Shown one piece after another: positions 22,098-44,301 of a stretch of DNA of 64,000 bases. The notes under the pieces were generated by a model. It was not told the DNA's origin and made no database searches. It saw only the letters and a program-made list of their open reading frames with translations. Origin of the DNA: Escherichia phage rV5_ev158; the sequence record LR694611; one strand, 5' to 3'. The stretch's first letter is position 1, and the number at the start of each line of letters is the position of its first letter. The position numbers were made by a program, and so were the translations under genes.

Positions 22098-24217
22098 AAG
22101 TTGTAAAACGGGACGGTAGAGAAGAGTTCTATAACGGAATTAAGGTGATCAAGGCGGCAGAGTCCGCCTTACTTGAGTCTGGACATACTGAAGAAGAAGC
22201 TTACCGGATCGCCTGCGCGGTTAATGAAGTTGTTGCTAACAATCTACCAACCGACCAGTGCACAATCTCTGTAAAAAATATCCATATCCTTGTTGAAGAT
22301 GCTCTTATGGATATGGGTTTAAAATGTGCAGCCAGAGAATACATCCAGTATAGACAGACAAGAGATAATAACAGAGAGGCAGGTGGAAAACTGCTTGCAG
22401 ATATTAGTGGCTTCTTGGATCGAACTTGTGATGAATTTACAAAAGAAAACGCAAATAAGCCTACTAATCATGTACACACTCATCGCGACCTGCTTGCAGG
22501 TATTCTTAGCAAACACCTTGCATCAACACAGATCCTGCCAGACCGTGTCTCCGAAGAGCACAATAAAGGCTTCATCCATGTGCATGATCTTGACTACTTG
22601 ATCAGTCCGTTAACAAACTGTTGTTTGGTAAATTATCCAGATATGTTGGAAAACGGATTCAACATTGGTAACGCCCATGTCAGTAAGCCGAAGTCAATAG
22701 GGGTTGCAACAACAATCCTTAGCCAAATTTCTAGTGCGGTAGCTAGTGCTCAATATGGTGGTCAGACTATGAGCCATATTGATCATTATCTGGCACAGTA
22801 TGCTGAAGCAACCTATGAGAAGAACCTTAAATTTTGCCAGGAACATTGGTTGCCAAATGCTGAGAGTGTTGCAATGCAAATGACAGATAAAGACGTATTT
22901 GACAGCATGCAGACTTTGCTCTATCAAATCAATACGTTAACTTCTGTCAACGGGCAAACTCCATTCATCACATTGAGTTTAGGACTGGATACCTCGGTCT
23001 TTGGTAGAATGATTACCAAAAACTACCTGAAAGTCCACAAAATGGGTCTTGGTGAAGAACGTATTACACCTGTGTTCCCTAAAGTGCTGTTCTTCCTAGA
23101 AGAGGGTGTCAACATGAACCCTGGGGATCCTAACTATGATTTGAAACGATTAGCTCTGGAATGCTGTGCAGAACGTATCTACCCTGACTTCGTATCTGTA
23201 CCACTAAATAGAAAAGTGACAGGCTCGACAGATGGCAAAGTAACTAGCATGGGTTGCAGGAGTTTTCTTAGCAAATACAATGACTTGGAAACAGGCGAGG
23301 AGAAATACCTTGGCAGATTTAACTTAGGCGTTGTTAGCCTTAACCTGCCAATGATTGCGGCAAAAGCCAAGACGGAAGGTGTTGATTTCTTTGCAGTTCT
23401 TGACGAATACTTGGATCTTGCATACGAGGCTCACCTTGTAAGGGTTAATCGTCTAAAAGGAACAAAGGCAGGGCAGAACCCCATCATGTGGTGTGAAGGC
23501 GCTCTTGCTCGCCTGGATCCTGAAGAGAGTATTGATAAACTCTTCTATGACGGGTACGCTTCCATCAGTATTGGGTATATCGGTGTGTATGAAACCTGTC
23601 AGATTTTGGGCAGAGAGGGTGACAAGGCTTTAGCTCTTGGAATCCTTCAGCACATGAGAGATGCTTGTGAGCGATACAAGAAGGAAAGTAGACTAGCATT
23701 TAGCTTGTACGGCACTCCTTCTGAGAGTCTATGCTATAAAGCTGCAACCTGTCTGGATCGTGAATATCCGGAAGTGTTGAAGCACGAGCATGAATATCTC
23801 ACCAACAGTTTCCATCAGCCAGTATGGATAAATAGCTCTCCTTTTGATAAGTGGGAGTATGAGGAAGGTTTTGCTATGATCTCCTCTGGTGGCAACATCG
23901 GATACGTAGAAACACCTAACCTGAAAAACAACCTGGATGCTTTAGAGGCTCTTGTTGACTTCGGGTATAAACACATTATGTATTTTGGTATTAACCAACC
24001 TGTGGATAAATGTCTCAAGTGTGGTTTCTCTGGTGAGTTCAGTGCAACAGCTAAAGGCTTTGTATGCCCAGAGTGTGGAAACCATGAAGAGGGAACGATC
24101 AGTGTAATTCGACGTGTGTCTGGATACCTTTCCAGTCCTAACTCCCGTCCTTACAATAAAGGTAAGCAAGCGGAAGTTATCGAGCGAGTTAAGCACTACG
24201 GAAGTTGTGGTTGCTGA
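22094..24217 (+). CDS. nrdD: anaerobic ribonucleotide reductase (class III)
   Basis: C-terminal glycyl-radical motif RRVSGYLS and zinc ribbon CLKCG...CPECG; 707 aa. Confidence 0.9.
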   Translation: MKVVKRDGREEFYNGIKVIKAAESALLESGHTEEEAYRIACAVNEVVANNLPTDQCTISVKNIHILVEDALMDMGLKCAAREYIQYRQTRDNNREAGGKLLADISGFLDRTCDEFTKENANKPTNHVHTHRDLLAGILSKHLASTQILPDRVSEEHNKGFIHVHDLDYLISPLTNCCLVNYPDMLENGFNIGNAHVSKPKSIGVATTILSQISSAVASAQYGGQTMSHIDHYLAQYAEATYEKNLKFCQEHWLPNAESVAMQMTDKDVFDSMQTLLYQINTLTSVNGQTPFITLSLGLDTSVFGRMITKNYLKVHKMGLGEERITPVFPKVLFFLEEGVNMNPGDPNYDLKRLALECCAERIYPDFVSVPLNRKVTGSTDGKVTSMGCRSFLSKYNDLETGEEKYLGRFNLGVVSLNLPMIAAKAKTEGVDFFAVLDEYLDLAYEAHLVRVNRLKGTKAGQNPIMWCEGALARLDPEESIDKLFYDGYASISIGYIGVYETCQILGREGDKALALGILQHMRDACERYKKESRLAFSLYGTPSESLCYKAATCLDREYPEVLKHEHEYLTNSFHQPVWINSSPFDKWEYEEGFAMISSGGNIGYVETPNLKNNLDALEALVDFGYKHIMYFGINQPVDKCLKCGFSGEFSATAKGFVCPECGNHEEGTISVIRRVSGYLSSPNSRPYNKGKQAEVIERVKHYGSCGC

Positions 24218-38834: not shown

Positions 38835-39142
38835 GGTGGATTATGTCTACAAAGGCGGCTAAATACTCCTATATGCCATCAACCTCTGCAGAGGTAGACT
38901 TTAGTTTCGATGTGTTTCCACTGTTTGAGGTGATTCTGGCATACCCAACAATACTATCTACTCCTGAATCACTTGTACCTGTTAAGTTGCAGAACGCTAT
39001 GCATTCTATGCACTACAACAACAAATGTAGGCACAGATGGTGTCAGGACGAGGAAAAAGATTTGGATAGTTTGAGGGATTTTGACAGTCACCTTTTGACA
39101 CCTTTCAGCTACTCCAACCTTGATAAGCCCTCATGGGTATAG
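38831..39142 (+). CDS. hypothetical protein
   Basis: ATGA coupling with upstream gene. Confidence 0.45.
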   Translation: MRWIMSTKAAKYSYMPSTSAEVDFSFDVFPLFEVILAYPTILSTPESLVPVKLQNAMHSMHYNNKCRHRWCQDEEKDLDSLRDFDSHLLTPFSYSNLDKPSWV

Positions 39143-39166
39143 CAAAATATCAAATTTAAGACACCT

Positions 39167-39193
39167 AGGACGCTCTGTGGCGTCCTTTTCTTT
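39167..39193 (+). terminator. intrinsic terminator AGGACGC-TCTGTG-GCGTCCT plus TTTCTTT
   Basis: read from sequence. Confidence 0.6.
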
Positions 39194-39355
39194 ATCTGGT
39201 GCACGATTGCATACCTTGGACAGATAATCTCGTTACAGAGCGTTTAAGAGCTTTCTACAAACAAGTCTCTCTTTCGAGCGTAGCGAGAACGCACGTCCGT
39301 TTTGACCCAAATCACCATACGCTCGGATTTTAACCAAACCCTCGCGGCGTTGCTG

Positions 39356-39384
39356 TTGACACATTACCGCTCCCGTGATAGTAT
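39356..39384 (+). promoter_or_regulatory. sigma70-type promoter TTGACA-N17-TAGTAT
   Basis: read from sequence. Confidence 0.55.
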
Positions 39385-39404
39385 CCACACACAGTTTGGA
39401 GAAT

Positions 39405-39506
39405 ATGGAATACACAATGAGAACATTGTCTGAAGTTTTAGTGGTGATCCTGATGATCATTACTTCCATAGCGGCTGTTGCCGGAATACTCACGGGTGGA
39501 ACATGA
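39405..39506 (+). CDS. small hydrophobic peptide (33 aa)
   Basis: MEYTMRTLSEVLVVILMIITSIAAVAGILTGGT; stop overlaps ATG of next ORF; below ORF-track cutoff. Confidence 0.35.
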   Translation: MEYTMRTLSEVLVVILMIITSIAAVAGILTGGT

Positions 39507-39715
39507 TCAACACACATGCATCTGAAGAGACATCCGAAGGAGTGACCATATGTCCCTTGGATGAGCCAGTTAAAGAGGAAAACTTAGATTCTGAGGACTC
39601 TTCATCTTCGTCCCAGACAGATCCTGAGGCTGATGACCTGACGTGGGAGGACATCGTAGATATCTGGTTCTCTATTATGCCTGAGCACGAAGAGTTCAGA
39701 GGTGGTAGACTATGA
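39503..39715 (+). CDS. small very acidic protein
   Basis: Asp/Glu/Ser-rich ORF coupled to upstream peptide. Confidence 0.4.
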   Translation: MINTHASEETSEGVTICPLDEPVKEENLDSEDSSSSSQTDPEADDLTWEDIVDIWFSIMPEHEEFRGGRL

Positions 39716-39836
39716 AGCACCGAGCCCACACAGGTTCCTCATGCTAAAGCATGGCCTGAAGAGGCAAACGTGTATAATTCTTGTGCATTGGAACGTATAA
39801 AACCCTGTTCACACTCTCATTCCCAGAGGAGATTTT

Positions 39837-40052
39837 ATGAAGATAGAGATATTTGGTGGAGCTGACAACACTCGTGGCCTGATTTACCTTGAATTCGATG
39901 AATCATACCTGCCAGAGGTGTTAAATATAGACTCTGTTGCTGAGGCTTTGGGAGTAAACCCTAAAGAACTCCACTCTTGTGCTGAGATCGATGGTTGGGA
40001 AGAGACCATGAACATTGATTTCAGTGAAGTAGAGGATGAACCGCTAGACTGA
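39837..40052 (+). CDS. small acidic protein (MKIEIFGG N-terminus); last plus-strand gene
   Basis: GAGGAG RBS; acidic tail EVEDEPLD. Confidence 0.45.
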   Translation: MKIEIFGGADNTRGLIYLEFDESYLPEVLNIDSVAEALGVNPKELHSCAEIDGWEETMNIDFSEVEDEPLD

Positions 40053-40748
40053 CACACAATCAGCTGCCCGGCTAAAGTGCTGGAAGCGCACCTATAACAC
40101 ATCTTTCAACTAAATTTCCTACCACCACAATCACTTACCTACCACACATGACTGTTTGCTTGTTTAGTGAGCAGTCATGCCTTGACATTCTTGCCTATCC
40201 TGATAAAATTAAGTTCTTCTCTTTTCTTTTACCGAGTAATTCGGGTTTTCTGTTCTCTTCGGTTTGAAGGGGTATGGAGATACACCTGAGTGAACAGGGT
40301 GAACAACCGAACCATTGGCTATGGCATTAGCATGGCGAAGCGGACGGGTGACGAAAGAGGGGCCGGAGGACACCAGTCACTGCCATATGATATATGGGTG
40401 ATAACCTGAAGAGTCTGAATAAGTGTTTAAGTACCAGTCAGAGGAAAAGGTGAATGGTAGCCGAAGGGGGATGGGGGGTTTCTTGTATCTTTAATTTGTA
40501 TATTATGTATACACTTGTAAACCAATCTCATCTGAATCTGTTTACCACACAAAGCGGATAGAGACAAATATCACCTATTAAACTTGAATTATTTATAGAA
40601 AATACCACAACACCACTTAAGTCTTTGATTTTACACACAAATCCTACAGATATTCAACCTCCATATTTAACATACTTGTAACATATTCCATACTCTACCT
40701 GTCTGATCAATTTCCCCAACTACATTCTCATATTTTCCCTGTCTGTAC

Positions 40749-40946
40749 TACCCCTGCCCCGCCGGGAGTCCCGTCATATCTGGCTTTCCAGCAAATATCA
40801 CACCCACAAATATCATTGCCTGAAGAGGGTTTCATCCCATAATACCTGCCTTACCTGAAGAGCGCTTCATACACCACGTAAATTTTTTAATTGACCTCCC
40901 CCTGCCCCGCCGGAGAGGTTGGCTTTTCCCACACAGACCTGAAGAG
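40749..40946. repeat. imperfect direct repeats, each starting CCCCTGCCCCGCCGG and ending CCTGAAGAG
   Basis: 9-mer CCTGAAGAG occurs five times between ~39755 and ~40946. Confidence 0.6.
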
Positions 40947-41522
40947 TCAGCCAGAAATATCTGAACAGGCCCAATTCTACCACGATTTTGACCTGACCTA
41001 CAGGGAGGCCCGAAGGGTCTAGCTTTCAGCTAGAGTCCTTGCAGGACCTACAGGAGCGCTGCCAGGCGGACGGAATGGGAATACTTCTCATTCTTATAAC
41101 AATTCTCAAATATCGAGACAGTGAGAGAAATTAATAGGCCAGGCCGTTCACACAGTGGCACAACATTTGCAACCTATTTTGGGTGGATGAATGAGAATAC
41201 CTATCATTGTGAGAACTGTTATCATTACGGGCAATTTAACATAATACCCATTATGCGCACCACCGGCGATACATACAGGGATTGATAACATGGGTTACTG
41301 TTTACGCACATAACAATTATATTTCTTACTATTTGTGTGGGATATAGTTAGCAGCCGATAGATTAGATATTAACCTGCAGACTTCTGACCGTCCAGACGT
41401 CTAAACGCCCACACACCAAGGATTATACATACACTCCTGAATGTAAACAGGGCCGCAAAAATGCTACCATACAAGCTTGTAAATTTTTCATGCAGCACTT
41501 GACAAAGAGGAGAAAAACTTGT

Positions 41523-41648
41523 CTGACATAATGTGACCTAACTGACACAACATGACACTTTTACACACCTATTAGTTTACACACTGGATTGTTTACATTC
41601 CTGATTGTTCACATGCTAACCATTTACATGATTGACTGTTTACACACC
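41523..41648. repeat. iteron-like short repeats: four TGACA-type at ~10 bp spacing, then five TGTTTACA-type at ~16 bp spacing
   Basis: read directly from sequence in ORF-free region. Confidence 0.5.
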
Positions 41649-41656
41649 GATAATCA

Positions 41657-41950
41657 GCCATGCCATTCGTTTGCATGAAAACAATTAACAAGATAACAAT
41701 CGACAAGTTAATAATCTTTCGCTGGCTATGCCAGGTGACTAGGTCACCCCTTCGGGCGTTCCTATGACATAATATAAAAGCAGGGCAACTATTAGCAGAT
41801 CTATAGTTGCCTTGCTTGTTATGTCATGATTAACTAAATACAAGGCAACTATGATCTGATTAATAGTTTGCAGACAAACTATCACGGGGGTGATGGTTAC
41901 TGCTTTTATATTATGTCGCGACTCCGTCGCGCCATGCCATTCGTTTGCAT
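41657..41950. repeat. composite dyad-symmetry element: 20-bp direct repeats flanking an 18-bp perfect inverted repeat and internal palindromes
   Basis: GCCATGCCATTCGTTTGCAT at ~41657 and ~41931; GACATAATATAAAAGCAG (41766-41783) inverted at 41901-41918; internal hairpins GGCAACTAT/ATAGTTGCC, GGTGAC-TAG-GTCACC, CGCGAC-TCC-GTCGCG. Confidence 0.6.
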
Positions 41951-42558
41951 AGTTGCCTTATTGTTACGAATAAAACAATTGCATTGTTAATGATTTCTTA
42001 TCTTTCTCTTAGTCATCTAATGATTCCAGTCAGTATAGTAATGTACAGTAAACATTAGACGACTAAAGATTTCTCTGTTTATGATAACTCATCTTGATAA
42101 TTTCGGACTGTTTACGAAAAATGTTGACACCTGAGCTGATTTATGTTATGCAGTTTACACGAATAATTATTTTATGCAGGTATTGACTATTCCGTTATTC
42201 TGTGGTTGGAATAAATACTTTGCAGGCTATAGAATGGCGTGCGTACGTGAATTCTGAGATCTGGCGGCTATAGTTATACTCGATTTTTCGCGTAGAACAC
42301 GCTTTCGATGCTGTGTAAGTGTATGACTTATAAAGATTTTTAGTTGTTGACAAGATATTGGAGATGTGCATCAGGTTAAAATTTGTGCAATAGCGGCATT
42401 ACGTGCACTTTTGGGAGAGAAAACGGGTAAAAATGGACTTGCTACCACACAATGAAAAATTATGCAATAGTTATTTTCCATGTATATTTGTACAGTATGT
42501 GGGATTGATGGCTAGTCAATTATTCCACTTGCCAGGTAGGGCCGTTTATGGTAGGAGA

Positions 42559-42590
42559 AGAGCAGACAAAAAGAAAGGGGCCTAAGCCCC
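42559..42590 (-). terminator. intrinsic terminator for the minus-strand block (GGGGC-TTAG-GCCCC then T-run on minus strand)
   Basis: hairpin ~20 nt beyond the stop of gene 42611..43030. Confidence 0.55.
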
Positions 42591-42610
42591 TTGATAATTC
42601 AGTTAAAAAA

Positions 42611-43030
42611 TTATAATGATTCGTATATTTCAAAAATCCGATTTGCCAGGTCGTTACGGTAGCGGAATTTTTCCTCACGTTTGATCATAAGATCTTTATA
42701 GCCGTACTCTTTAAGCACTTCATTAACTTTATGGCGGCATACTTTCATATTATCCTGCGCGTCACCAATAAATCTGTTGCTATGGTGCATGGCTTTAATT
42801 TCTTCTTCCAGGACCAGGGCAACTATGCGGACCGGATCAAGCTGATAGGCGGTAACATCCATGCGGCATTGTAAACGGCTTTTTACGTCTGCCACCGGAT
42901 ATACTGCAACCTCTTCCCCGTCAACATTGATAATAATTAGTTTACCATCGATTTCGAATCCTTTCGCCGCCGGACCGTGACAAAAAGCGTTATCAAAGCT
43001 ATATGCCGGATTATTAGATTTAATGTTCAT
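42611..43030 (-). CDS. hypothetical protein
   Basis: minus-strand ORF; TTGACA-N17-TATATT promoter-like sequence upstream on minus strand. Confidence 0.5.
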   Translation of the reverse strand: MNIKSNNPAYSFDNAFCHGPAAKGFEIDGKLIIINVDGEEVAVYPVADVKSRLQCRMDVTAYQLDPVRIVALVLEEEIKAMHHSNRFIGDAQDNMKVCRHKVNEVLKEYGYKDLMIKREEKFRYRNDLANRIFEIYESL

Positions 43031-43174
43031 GGTGTTTTTACCTCTTAGTTAATTTTCTTACAACTTCCCTTCAAAAAAGAATATAGCAAAACTGCCGATC
43101 CCTGTCAACCAGGGATAGCATAATTTTTATGTGATCAAGGGGCTTTATTGCCCCTGACCATGTAACTTGTTGTA

Positions 43175-43438
43175 TTATTTGTTGCTCATCCAGTTTTCCC
43201 AAGCTGCCTGATAATCTGCCTCACTACGGCGGATCTCTTCTTGCTCTTCAAGGCGGATCTCTTCTTCCAGGTACCCCAAGATGTCAGCCTTTTTAGTCTG
43301 GCGTAGCATCCAGTCATCTTTTTTGCGAGTGAAGATCTTATAAGCTTTCTCGCAAACCTCTTTTTTGCTACCTTTCTGGACTTCAAGAACACGATAAGCC
43401 ATATATTGAACTAATTTGAGCTGATCAAGACGTTTCAT
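43175..43438 (-). CDS. hypothetical protein
   Basis: minus-strand ORF with upstream GC hairpin. Confidence 0.45.
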   Translation of the reverse strand: MKRLDQLKLVQYMAYRVLEVQKGSKKEVCEKAYKIFTRKKDDWMLRQTKKADILGYLEEEIRLEEQEEIRRSEADYQAAWENWMSNK

Positions 43439-43498
43439 GATGTTTACCTCTTTGTGCGGTTCTGATTAGTGGGCCTTTTGGCCCGTGTCATTATCTTA

Positions 43499-43771
43499 TT
43501 ACTTATGGCGGCAGAATTCAAGCGTTTTTAATTGATAATCTTCCTCAGCCTGGAGTACAACCGCCTCGATCATTTCGTTGGCATTGTTGAAGCCATACCC
43601 TTTAGCGAACTCGTCCGCACCACCTTCGTGATCATGTTCTGCGTTCATCGCTTCCACAAAATGGAATTCCAAATTGTTGAGGTAGGGGCTTGATGTGCCG
43701 TCTTCTTTTTCGATGAGATCCCAAATAGCATTAAAACGTGATTCGACTTCTTGATTAATCCAGCTTGACAT
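43499..43771 (-). CDS. hypothetical acidic protein
   Basis: minus-strand ORF. Confidence 0.45.
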   Translation of the reverse strand: MSSWINQEVESRFNAIWDLIEKEDGTSSPYLNNLEFHFVEAMNAEHDHEGGADEFAKGYGFNNANEMIEAVVLQAEEDYQLKTLEFCRHK

Positions 43772-43989
43772 AGTGTTTTCCTCTCTTCTGGTTGTTGTGT
43801 GGGCACCTTTGCCCCTTCAAGATAAATGTTACCCCACCCCCTGGCAGATGTCAACGGTTTTTATAGTTCTTATATGACAGGCAGGCCTGGTGATTGTCTC
43901 CCCCTGTTCCCAAGTGCCGCCCGTTTAATAAGAATAGCAAAAGGGGCCGAACAAGTCAACCCCAAAATCAGTACCAAAACACTTTTTAT

Positions 43990-44301
43990 TTATACGGTCC
44001 GGTCATTGGCCTTTGTCCAGGACCTGGCGATCCGTTTCCCAGTCACCTGGAACGGAGACTGCATTGTGTGTAATGAATCCAGCGTAAGGGAGGACCGTTT
44101 ACGGCGTATCTTCAGGATCGCCAATGTATTGTCCATCTCACGGCCAGGTCCTGGGCGGTATGGTGTGCCTCCAGCGTTAAGGTTGATGATCTCATGTATT
44201 GAGATCCGGCGTTGTTTTGCTTCCGCATCTTTGAAGATAGCCAGTGGAGGCGCTATGCGTTGCCGATACCAATCTAAAACGGTTGGCGTAATAGCGATCA
44301 T
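43990..44301 (-). CDS. hypothetical protein
   Basis: minus-strand ORF. Confidence 0.45.
   Translation of the reverse strand: MIAITPTVLDWYRQRIAPPLAIFKDAEAKQRRISIHEIINLNAGGTPYRPGPGREMDNTLAILKIRRKRSSLTLDSLHTMQSPFQVTGKRIARSWTKANDRTV

Follow-up and report, generated by a model that had tools for sequence, protein, structure and literature searches.

We focus on a gene-free region in a 64,000-nt stretch of the genome of Escherichia phage rV5_ev158 (sequence record LR694611); this whole stretch is referred to below as the window. In the open reading frame (ORF) list of the whole window, the last plus-strand ORF stops at 40052 and the first minus-strand ORF stops at 42611. The 2558 bases between them (40053-42610) show no coding signal, and from their conservation and their correspondence with related records they very probably represent the genome-terminus region of a Vequintavirus, that is, the junction of both virion chromosome ends as it would occur in a concatemer, collapsed in the assembly. 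The chromosome would be linear with fixed ends and would carry a direct terminal repeat (DTR) of 459 bp, located at 41065-41523. The core of this finding is already documented for sister phages, and the feature is of a known kind. No publication was found in which the repeat is connected with the 'non-coding' box of rV5, or in which the flanking arrays, the conserved block or the palindrome are described. The phased arrays at the repeat edges, a promoter-driven block of about 260 nt and a large palindrome are the undescribed parts, and it is in these that the residual interest lies.

The Terminal Repeat and the Probable Chromosome Ends

The position and length of the repeat are given by its exact correspondence with sister genomes whose ends have been determined. 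When the ends of the Gotham and EdH4 records are aligned to the window, the virion left end begins at 41065 (GGCGGACGGAATGGG...) and the right end stops at 41523 (...GAAAAACTTGTC). The Gotham record carries a repeat_region annotation at 1-459 and another at 136567-137025; the two end copies are identical to each other in Gotham, and likewise in EdH4, and both map to 41065-41523. HdK5, ECP2303, ECP2309, Pr121LW, bov11CS3, bov25_3 and EcoIv14a_Aya also start or end exactly at these positions, so that at least nine sister records from several laboratories begin or finish precisely at 41065 or 41523. In HdK5, the terminal repeat is matched at two places in the record. Terminal redundancies of 458 bp were reported for EdH4 and HdK5, with the genome ends placed where most reads stop abruptly (Korf, 2019). 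The repeats of EdH4, HdK5 (458 bp) and Gotham (459 bp) have the same sequence and the same two edges as that of the window. Because the ends of the sister records and those of Korf (2019) coincide with 41065 and 41523, the window assembly is taken to hold one collapsed copy of the 459-bp DTR.

The same two edges recur in the Vequintavirus records, where the terminal repeat is 93-98% identical to that of the window. In a comparative alignment of the region from 14 genomes (the window and 13 relatives), conservation is high inside the repeat and drops right outside both edges (0.34 at 40997-41036 and 0.69-0.81 at 41517-41636). The stretch 40053-41064 can be assigned as the non-coding flank of the virion right end and 41524-42610 as that of the left end. 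A sequence-only reading of this DNA had listed a genome terminus, a terminal-repeat boundary and a packaging site among the possible functions of the region. This proposal is supported by the sister records and one paper, which place both ends and a 459-bp DTR at 41065-41523.

A comparable arrangement is found outside the genus in Klebsiella phage KPP-1, a member of the genus Mydovirus in the same subfamily, for which a DTR of 514 bp with twofold coverage was reported and classified by PhageTerm as T7-type. In KPP-1, too, the surroundings of the repeat are gene-poor and convergent. Weak homology to rV5 is seen within the KPP-1 repeat and at its right edge (CTTGACAARGAG...), the left flanks have motifs in common (AAATATCA in two copies, a C-rich run and GACCTGAAGWGTCAGCC), and KPP-1 has a 21-nt perfect inverted repeat of its own, ~310 bp beyond the terminal repeat. 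In contrast to the window, KPP-1 has neither the TGTTTACA array nor the 260-nt block described below.

Several points weigh against fixed ends and the roles that we give to the flanks. The ends of the window phage are placed by homology only, at 93-98% identity within the repeat, and the repeat accounts for just 459 of the 2558 bp. For another Vequintavirus, a 2026 paper reported that PhageTerm calls headful packaging with partial permutation, and for the related phages PVP-SE1 and phiTE, terminal redundancy with circular permutation has been described. The suggested roles of the flanks, including the binding of terminase to the arrays, are drawn from analogies. Moreover, no small-terminase or other DNA-binding protein gene was identified adjoining the region, and the terminase gene is located outside the window.

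Recognition of 41065-41523 as a terminal repeat would provide a natural start point for these genomes, their true virion length (assembly plus 459 bp) and their packaging class. Most of the ~120 deposited Vequintavirus genomes have been linearised arbitrarily, with the region left blank or filled with spurious small ORFs. With both gene blocks running toward the ends, neither end has inward-reading early genes such as those of T7, T5 and N4. Phages of this group are common in cocktails for therapy and biocontrol, and their packaging signals and any early RNA matter for engineering and for transduction risk.

Coding Potential and Conservation of the Region

In the 2013 rV5 genome paper, this stretch was shown as a grey 'non-coding' box between genes 163 and 164, and was left unexplained. 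The bidirectional terminators that were expected were not found in the box, and a change in GC/AT skew at 104425-105475 was put down to the change in transcription direction. With an ORF threshold of 60 aa, the 2300 nt at 40103-42402 are the longest ORF-free gap of the window, with a runner-up of only 464 nt, which bears out the earlier description of this region as the longest non-coding stretch. In the flanking genes, substitutions in the 14-genome alignment are distributed over the codon positions as 6/5/26 and 18/19/32, a clear excess at the third position. Such a bias is absent from all of the short internal ORFs (25/25, scored on variable columns by codon position), and those in the variable parts are interrupted in most of the 13 relatives. 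A PHROG search with seven internal ORFs matched no family. The three flanking genes tested do match PHROG families, which are of unknown function, and the flanking proteins have no Pfam domains. Hidden protein genes in 40053-42610 are therefore rejected, as there is neither codon-position bias nor a PHROG match. In MiataMamis and Mangalyan, 12-14 'hypothetical proteins' of 28-68 aa are annotated across the region; because they have no coding signature, these small ORFs, which overlap the terminal repeat and the palindrome, are over-annotation.

Known RNA genes were also considered as the content of the region. ARAGORN finds no tRNA or tmRNA in it, the covariance models of Rfam 15 give no match at E<=1 over 39000-44000, and small-window Rfam scans give just hairpin matches far below the family threshold. 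A tRNA, a tmRNA or a curated RNA family is rejected on these grounds, and the scans that the sequence-only reading had proposed as a check thus yielded no tRNA and no credible Rfam family.

Over its full 2558 bases, the region matches the record of Escherichia phage rV5_ev168 at 100% identity and 120 other records, without exception Vequintavirus, at 85-96% (121 records in total, 85-100%). This conservation bears on the view that the region is a functionless spacer, or consists of decaying genes between convergent operons, with repeats that arose by chance. Some stretches are variable and indel-rich, as such a view would have it. However, large blocks exceed the adjacent genes in conservation, motif clustering and folding lie far beyond those of shuffled controls, and the same architecture recurs in another genus (KPP-1). 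A spacer of this kind is extremely improbable, and the pattern of conservation in the aligned genomes rules out junk DNA.

Arrays and Modules Flanking the Repeat

Short repeats adjoin the terminal repeat at its right edge. On the plus strand at 41524-41656, the alignment reveals an array that opens with TGACA-type units at 41524, 41534 (as TGACC), 41543 and 41553, spaced ~10 nt apart, and continues with six TTTAC/GTTCAC units with a period of 15-16 nt at 41560-41639. The first base of these TGACA/TGTTTACA arrays is the first base past the right edge of the repeat (41524). Its length ranges over 112-219 nt in the 14 genomes and its number of TTYAC units over 1-8, with the 15-16 nt register constant. 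The TGACA repeats and the second iteron-like repeats, first noted for their ~10 and ~16 bp spacing, are thus real, and the register is kept in the 13 relatives. A variable copy number combined with a constant register is the behaviour of a putative protein-binding array and not that of a conserved sequence.

Before the left edge, the flank of the virion right end contains a second group of modules at 40748-40950 (plus strand), consisting of an 18-nt C-rich direct repeat, AAATATCA in two copies (40793 and 40808) and CCTGAAGAG in three (40819, 40854 and 40938). The C-rich core is found at 40748 and 40896 (17/18 identical), and past the core there is patchy similarity only. Of the two direct repeats of 50-80 bp that had been reported for the region, this core is what stands, with little shared beyond it. 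The 9-mer CCTGAAGAG was said to occur five times in the region; four copies lie inside it, a fifth lies just outside (39755), and there is one more at 23519. All six copies are on the plus strand, with 0.56 expected in 64 kb.

From these elements, a packaging mechanism can be proposed by analogy with the T7 type. Late replication would join genomes head to tail via one copy of the repeat, and terminase would recognise sequences around it. Candidate recognition sites would be the phased TGACA/TGTTTACA array that runs from the right edge and the AAATATCA, CCTGAAGAG and C-rich modules before the left edge. Terminase would then cut at both edges, and DNA synthesis would duplicate the repeat, as in T7-type packaging. 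A strong host-type promoter at 40182 would drive an RNA of ~260 nt toward the junction, and the 152-bp palindrome would end transcription arriving from either direction. The assignment of the array and the left-flank modules to recognition by terminase or an accessory protein is made with moderate confidence only.

In T7, arrays of short repeats border the terminal repeat. Its terminase is recruited when the RNA polymerase pauses at the concatemer junction, and packaging specificity has been mapped to sites within 5% of the termini. The T7/T3 junction, with its 160-bp terminal repeat, resembles the region studied here in its short exact repeat, fixed ends, adjoining short-repeat arrays and a promoter aimed at the junction. 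However, there is no sequence similarity between the two, and the phage considered here is a 138-kb myovirus with host-type promoters and no known phage RNA polymerase. Its two flanking gene blocks both run toward the ends, unlike those of T7 and T3, which run inward from the leading end.

T5 also has repeats and palindromes in non-coding DNA close to a chromosome end, and the region had been likened to the T5 injection stop, which would pause DNA entry after a first segment. In T5, this signal lies within a terminal repeat of ~10 kb, past pre-early genes whose products restart the transfer. Here, the repeat measures 459 bp and is free of ORFs, and transcription of the gene blocks on both sides runs toward the ends. 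With no gene between the arrays and either terminus, a pause at this point would leave no protein-coding DNA in the cell. The repeats of T5-like phages, by comparison, span 10-11 kb (Korf, 2019). The resemblance to T5 is a general one that fails at the level of structure, and an injection stop is very unlikely.

A replication origin has also to be weighed, either of the iteron type bound by protein or primed by transcription. Such an origin could make up the region or be contained in it, and is compatible with a genome terminus. In the iteron version, the 16-nt TGTTTACA array is followed by an AT-rich AACAAT stretch and then by the palindrome. Iterons are recognised as at least three phased direct repeats beside AT-rich DNA, and the six phased units at 41560-41639 adjoin AT-rich DNA (the AACAAT stretch, 41677-41716) and a cruciform-forming palindrome. 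The evolving copy number and constant register of the array are those expected of binding sites, TTGTTCACA and TTGTTTACA appear by eye to be weak look-alikes of DnaA boxes, and the cumulative GC skew turns at the region. This turn, however, is also the switch in gene orientation, to which the rV5 authors ascribed the skew. No recognisable initiator gene lies nearby (Pfam and PHROG on the flanking proteins), and KPP-1 does without both the array and the 260-nt block. Taken over both versions, an origin at this place is unlikely.

A Promoter and a Conserved 260-nt Block

Promoters of the sigma70 type with at least 10 of 12 matches are strongly strand-coherent in the window: of the 32 on the plus strand, 29 lie at 2551-40182, and of the 33 on the minus strand, 23 lie at 43108-63143. 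Their agreement with gene orientation suggests that the phage relies on host RNA polymerase throughout. The final member of the plus-strand series (40182-40209) consists of TTGACA, a 16-nt spacer and TAAAAT with a TG extension (11/12 matches), and is the one promoter of the plus-strand series that no ORF follows. In L009, the most divergent genome, both hexamers are intact, and the changes (six substitutions and a 2-nt insertion) fall in the spacer.

At the predicted transcription start of this promoter (~40216) begins a block of about 260 nt that is ultra-conserved (40216-40478, plus strand) and that ends with GAAGGGGGA(T)GGGGGG followed by TTTC. Among 19 distinct sequences, the block has 12 variable positions, indels in the terminal G-run aside, and past the G-run variation returns abruptly. 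It is 97.4-100% identical in about 117 genomes, a conservation above that of the adjacent gene. The plus strand is predicted to fold at -85 kcal/mol (z -1.8), in comparison with -52.7 kcal/mol (z 0) for its complement. A consensus fold of 12 distinct sequences (>=97% identical) contains 85 pairs, in which the pyrimidine-rich 5' end pairs with the G-rich 3' end. No compensatory pairs are present in this fold, the 12 sequences being too alike to vary much, and a single C-G to U-A change (40312/40343) is found in the single-sequence fold only. The block thus appears to be a candidate RNA gene of about 260 nt, probably non-coding, and the only canonical host promoter of the junction would drive a near-invariant sequence without a protein product.

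Searches for relatives of the block returned members of the genus only. It matches no Rfam family, no homologue outside the genus is present in the phage database, and a metagenome scan for divergent copies gave just five near-identical Vequintavirus contigs and two chance matches. IMG/VR holds three loci with the block. An RNA mimic derived from the host was rejected, as no similarity was found in 5,426 E. coli genomes.

It has been suggested for the region as a whole that it is a structured non-coding RNA locus, and its main content may be one or more such RNAs that act in host takeover or counter-defence. The first, of ~260 nt, would start from the promoter at 40182; the second, of ~125 nt, would cross the palindrome from a TGnCATAAT extended -10 element at 41765 to a U-run at about 41905. 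For the first, the promoter hexamers are kept while the spacer diverges, near-total conservation sets in at the predicted start and extends over about 117 genomes, folding is strand-specific with a consensus that closes the 5' and 3' ends, and the change at 40312/40343 may preserve a pair. For the second, the palindrome folds strongly as RNA and ends in a U-run. A relative, phiTE, expresses a functional non-coding RNA. On the other hand, the consensus fold has no compensatory pair and too little variation for a test of structure, the frequent change of C to A at 40313 disrupts a predicted pair, no Rfam family is matched, and the palindrome folds well irrespective of transcription. No transcriptome study of a Vequintavirus was found in the literature. 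Of the suggestion, then, what is plausible is a locus at 40216-40478, with its promoter, sharp conservation edges and strand-specific folding, though no covariation is seen in it. As an account of the main content of the region, non-coding RNA is possible, though on balance the evidence leaves it somewhat improbable.

The precedent from phiTE, an rV5-like phage of Pectobacterium, is pseudo-ToxI, an expressed non-coding RNA. It is similar in being a non-coding RNA locus in a relative of rV5, and different in lying between co-oriented genes upstream of the terminase gene, so that it is not syntenic with the region. Synteny with this escape locus was rejected for that reason. Tandem repeats of ~36 nt like those of ToxI are absent from the region, in which a tandem-repeat scan found only 2.5 copies of a 15-nt unit.

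The order of elements at this promoter also allows for the transcription-primed version of an origin. The promoter at 40182 is followed by a G-rich RNA that would end in G5AG6-U3 (GAAGGGGGAGGGGGG-UUUC) and then by 270 nt of AT-rich DNA. In this version, the nascent RNA would stall or terminate at the G-run and prime the PolA-type polymerase of the phage; rV5 encodes such a polymerase along with a gp4-like primase-helicase (2013 rV5 paper). Alternatively, the transcript could be an immediate-early regulatory or counter-defence RNA, and would be transcribed before anything else if the chromosome enters the cell with its right end leading. In human mitochondrial DNA (mtDNA), a G-quadruplex at CSB II terminates transcription and an R-loop provides the primer, and the G-run is similar in sequence to CSB II. 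A promoter, a G-run-A-G-run, U/T and AT-rich DNA are shared with mtDNA CSB II, ColE1 RNA II and the promoter-plus-AT-rich origins of T7 and T4, and the replisome of PolA and gp4-like type would fit as well. The resemblance, however, is one in the order of sequence elements only. The pair of proposals, a primed origin or an immediate-early RNA, is quite improbable; if true, either would represent a new class of functional RNA in widely used therapeutic coliphages.

Two observations concern the G-run itself. At 40472, the window alone has a T inserted (GGGGGATGGGGGG), at a place where 18 other distinct relatives read GGGGGAGGGGGG, plus or minus one G; this could be a real variant of the 'ev' strain or a homopolymer sequencing error. 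The fragmentary GenBank records OR844887, OR845197 and OR844894 break at ~40450-40540, at the transition from the G-run to AT-rich DNA, which suggests a recurrent assembly or coverage problem. A neighbouring minus-strand gene at 43175-43438 encodes an 87-aa product that several records name 'DNA translocase FtsK'. Its product has no Pfam match at E<=0.01 and belongs to a PHROG family of unknown function, and the idea of an FtsK-like translocase that binds the G-run was rejected, as Pfam gives the annotation no support.

The Palindrome

Within the flank of the virion left end lies a composite palindrome of 152 bp (41766-41917) that is near-invariant and folds far beyond chance in comparison with shuffled controls (z -8.2 as DNA and -8.1 as RNA). 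Its perfect 18-nt arms surround two inverted pairs of the GGCAACTAT-N10-ATAGTTGCC type that are 60 bp apart, the second of them imperfect. The palindrome also holds a 9-bp hairpin, and GGCAACTAT clusters there. The symmetry of the arms places a U-run after the structure on either strand, which makes the palindrome a good candidate for the bidirectional terminator that had been expected at this place in the rV5 paper. Given its operator-like geometry, it may also be a binding site for a dimeric protein. There are exactly two copies of the word TGACATAAT in the 64 kb, one at 41524 (the right cut site) and one at 41765 (an arm of the palindrome), and the word reads as either an extended -10 element or a recognition word. 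LL12 and V5 carry a 33-nt insertion at 41818/41819, within the otherwise invariant palindrome.

A perfect direct repeat of 20 nt (GCCATGCCATTCGTTTGCAT, plus strand) brackets the palindrome. Its first copy (41657-41676) is kept in 14/14 genomes, with one substitution in SophiaRose, and the second (41931-41950) was found by repeat search and alignment. The segment between the two copies could be read as a miniature transposon; this was rejected, as there are no terminal inverted repeats beside them.

Other Features of the Region

Inside the terminal repeat, an 18-nt unit occurs 1.9 times at 41192-41226 (GAGAATACCTATCATTGT / GAGAACTGTTATCATTAC), and it carries a repeat_region annotation in navn, naswa and Alma. 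KPP-1 has AATGAGAAT twice within its own terminal repeat. Just outside the left edge of the window repeat, the alignment shows a hypervariable indel (40995-41055, conservation 0.34) bounded by GACCTACAGG direct repeats. A 51-nt insert of three small hairpins is present here only in the window, navn and Alma, and the remaining genomes either lack an insert or have another one, in which the CAGGAGYGCTGCC motif beside the left cut site is duplicated.

Two further motif-based proposals were rejected. GATC is not enriched in the region, which argues against a cluster of Dam sites like that of P1 pac. The motif CUGAAGAG had the appearance of a hammerhead ribozyme; on inspection by eye, every copy lacks the remaining core elements and helices, and Rfam returned nothing.

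The remainder of the region is AT-rich. Between the 260-nt block and the C-rich modules, composition and conservation define a spacer (40480-40745) that is 29-34% GC, C-skewed and more variable. Past the second 20-nt repeat, the flank of the left end (41951-42574) is AT-rich with conserved islands. It leads to a predicted intrinsic terminator on the minus strand (42575-42592) that would close the minus-strand gene block, and a terminator is annotated there in Alma, Murica, EdH4 and Gotham.

Lastly, 19 GenBank records (MG0656xx) are titled 'Campylobacter phage', with C. jejuni as host. They are Vequintavirus genomes that are 89-98% identical to the window in this region, and their naming likely reflects mislabelling or contamination.

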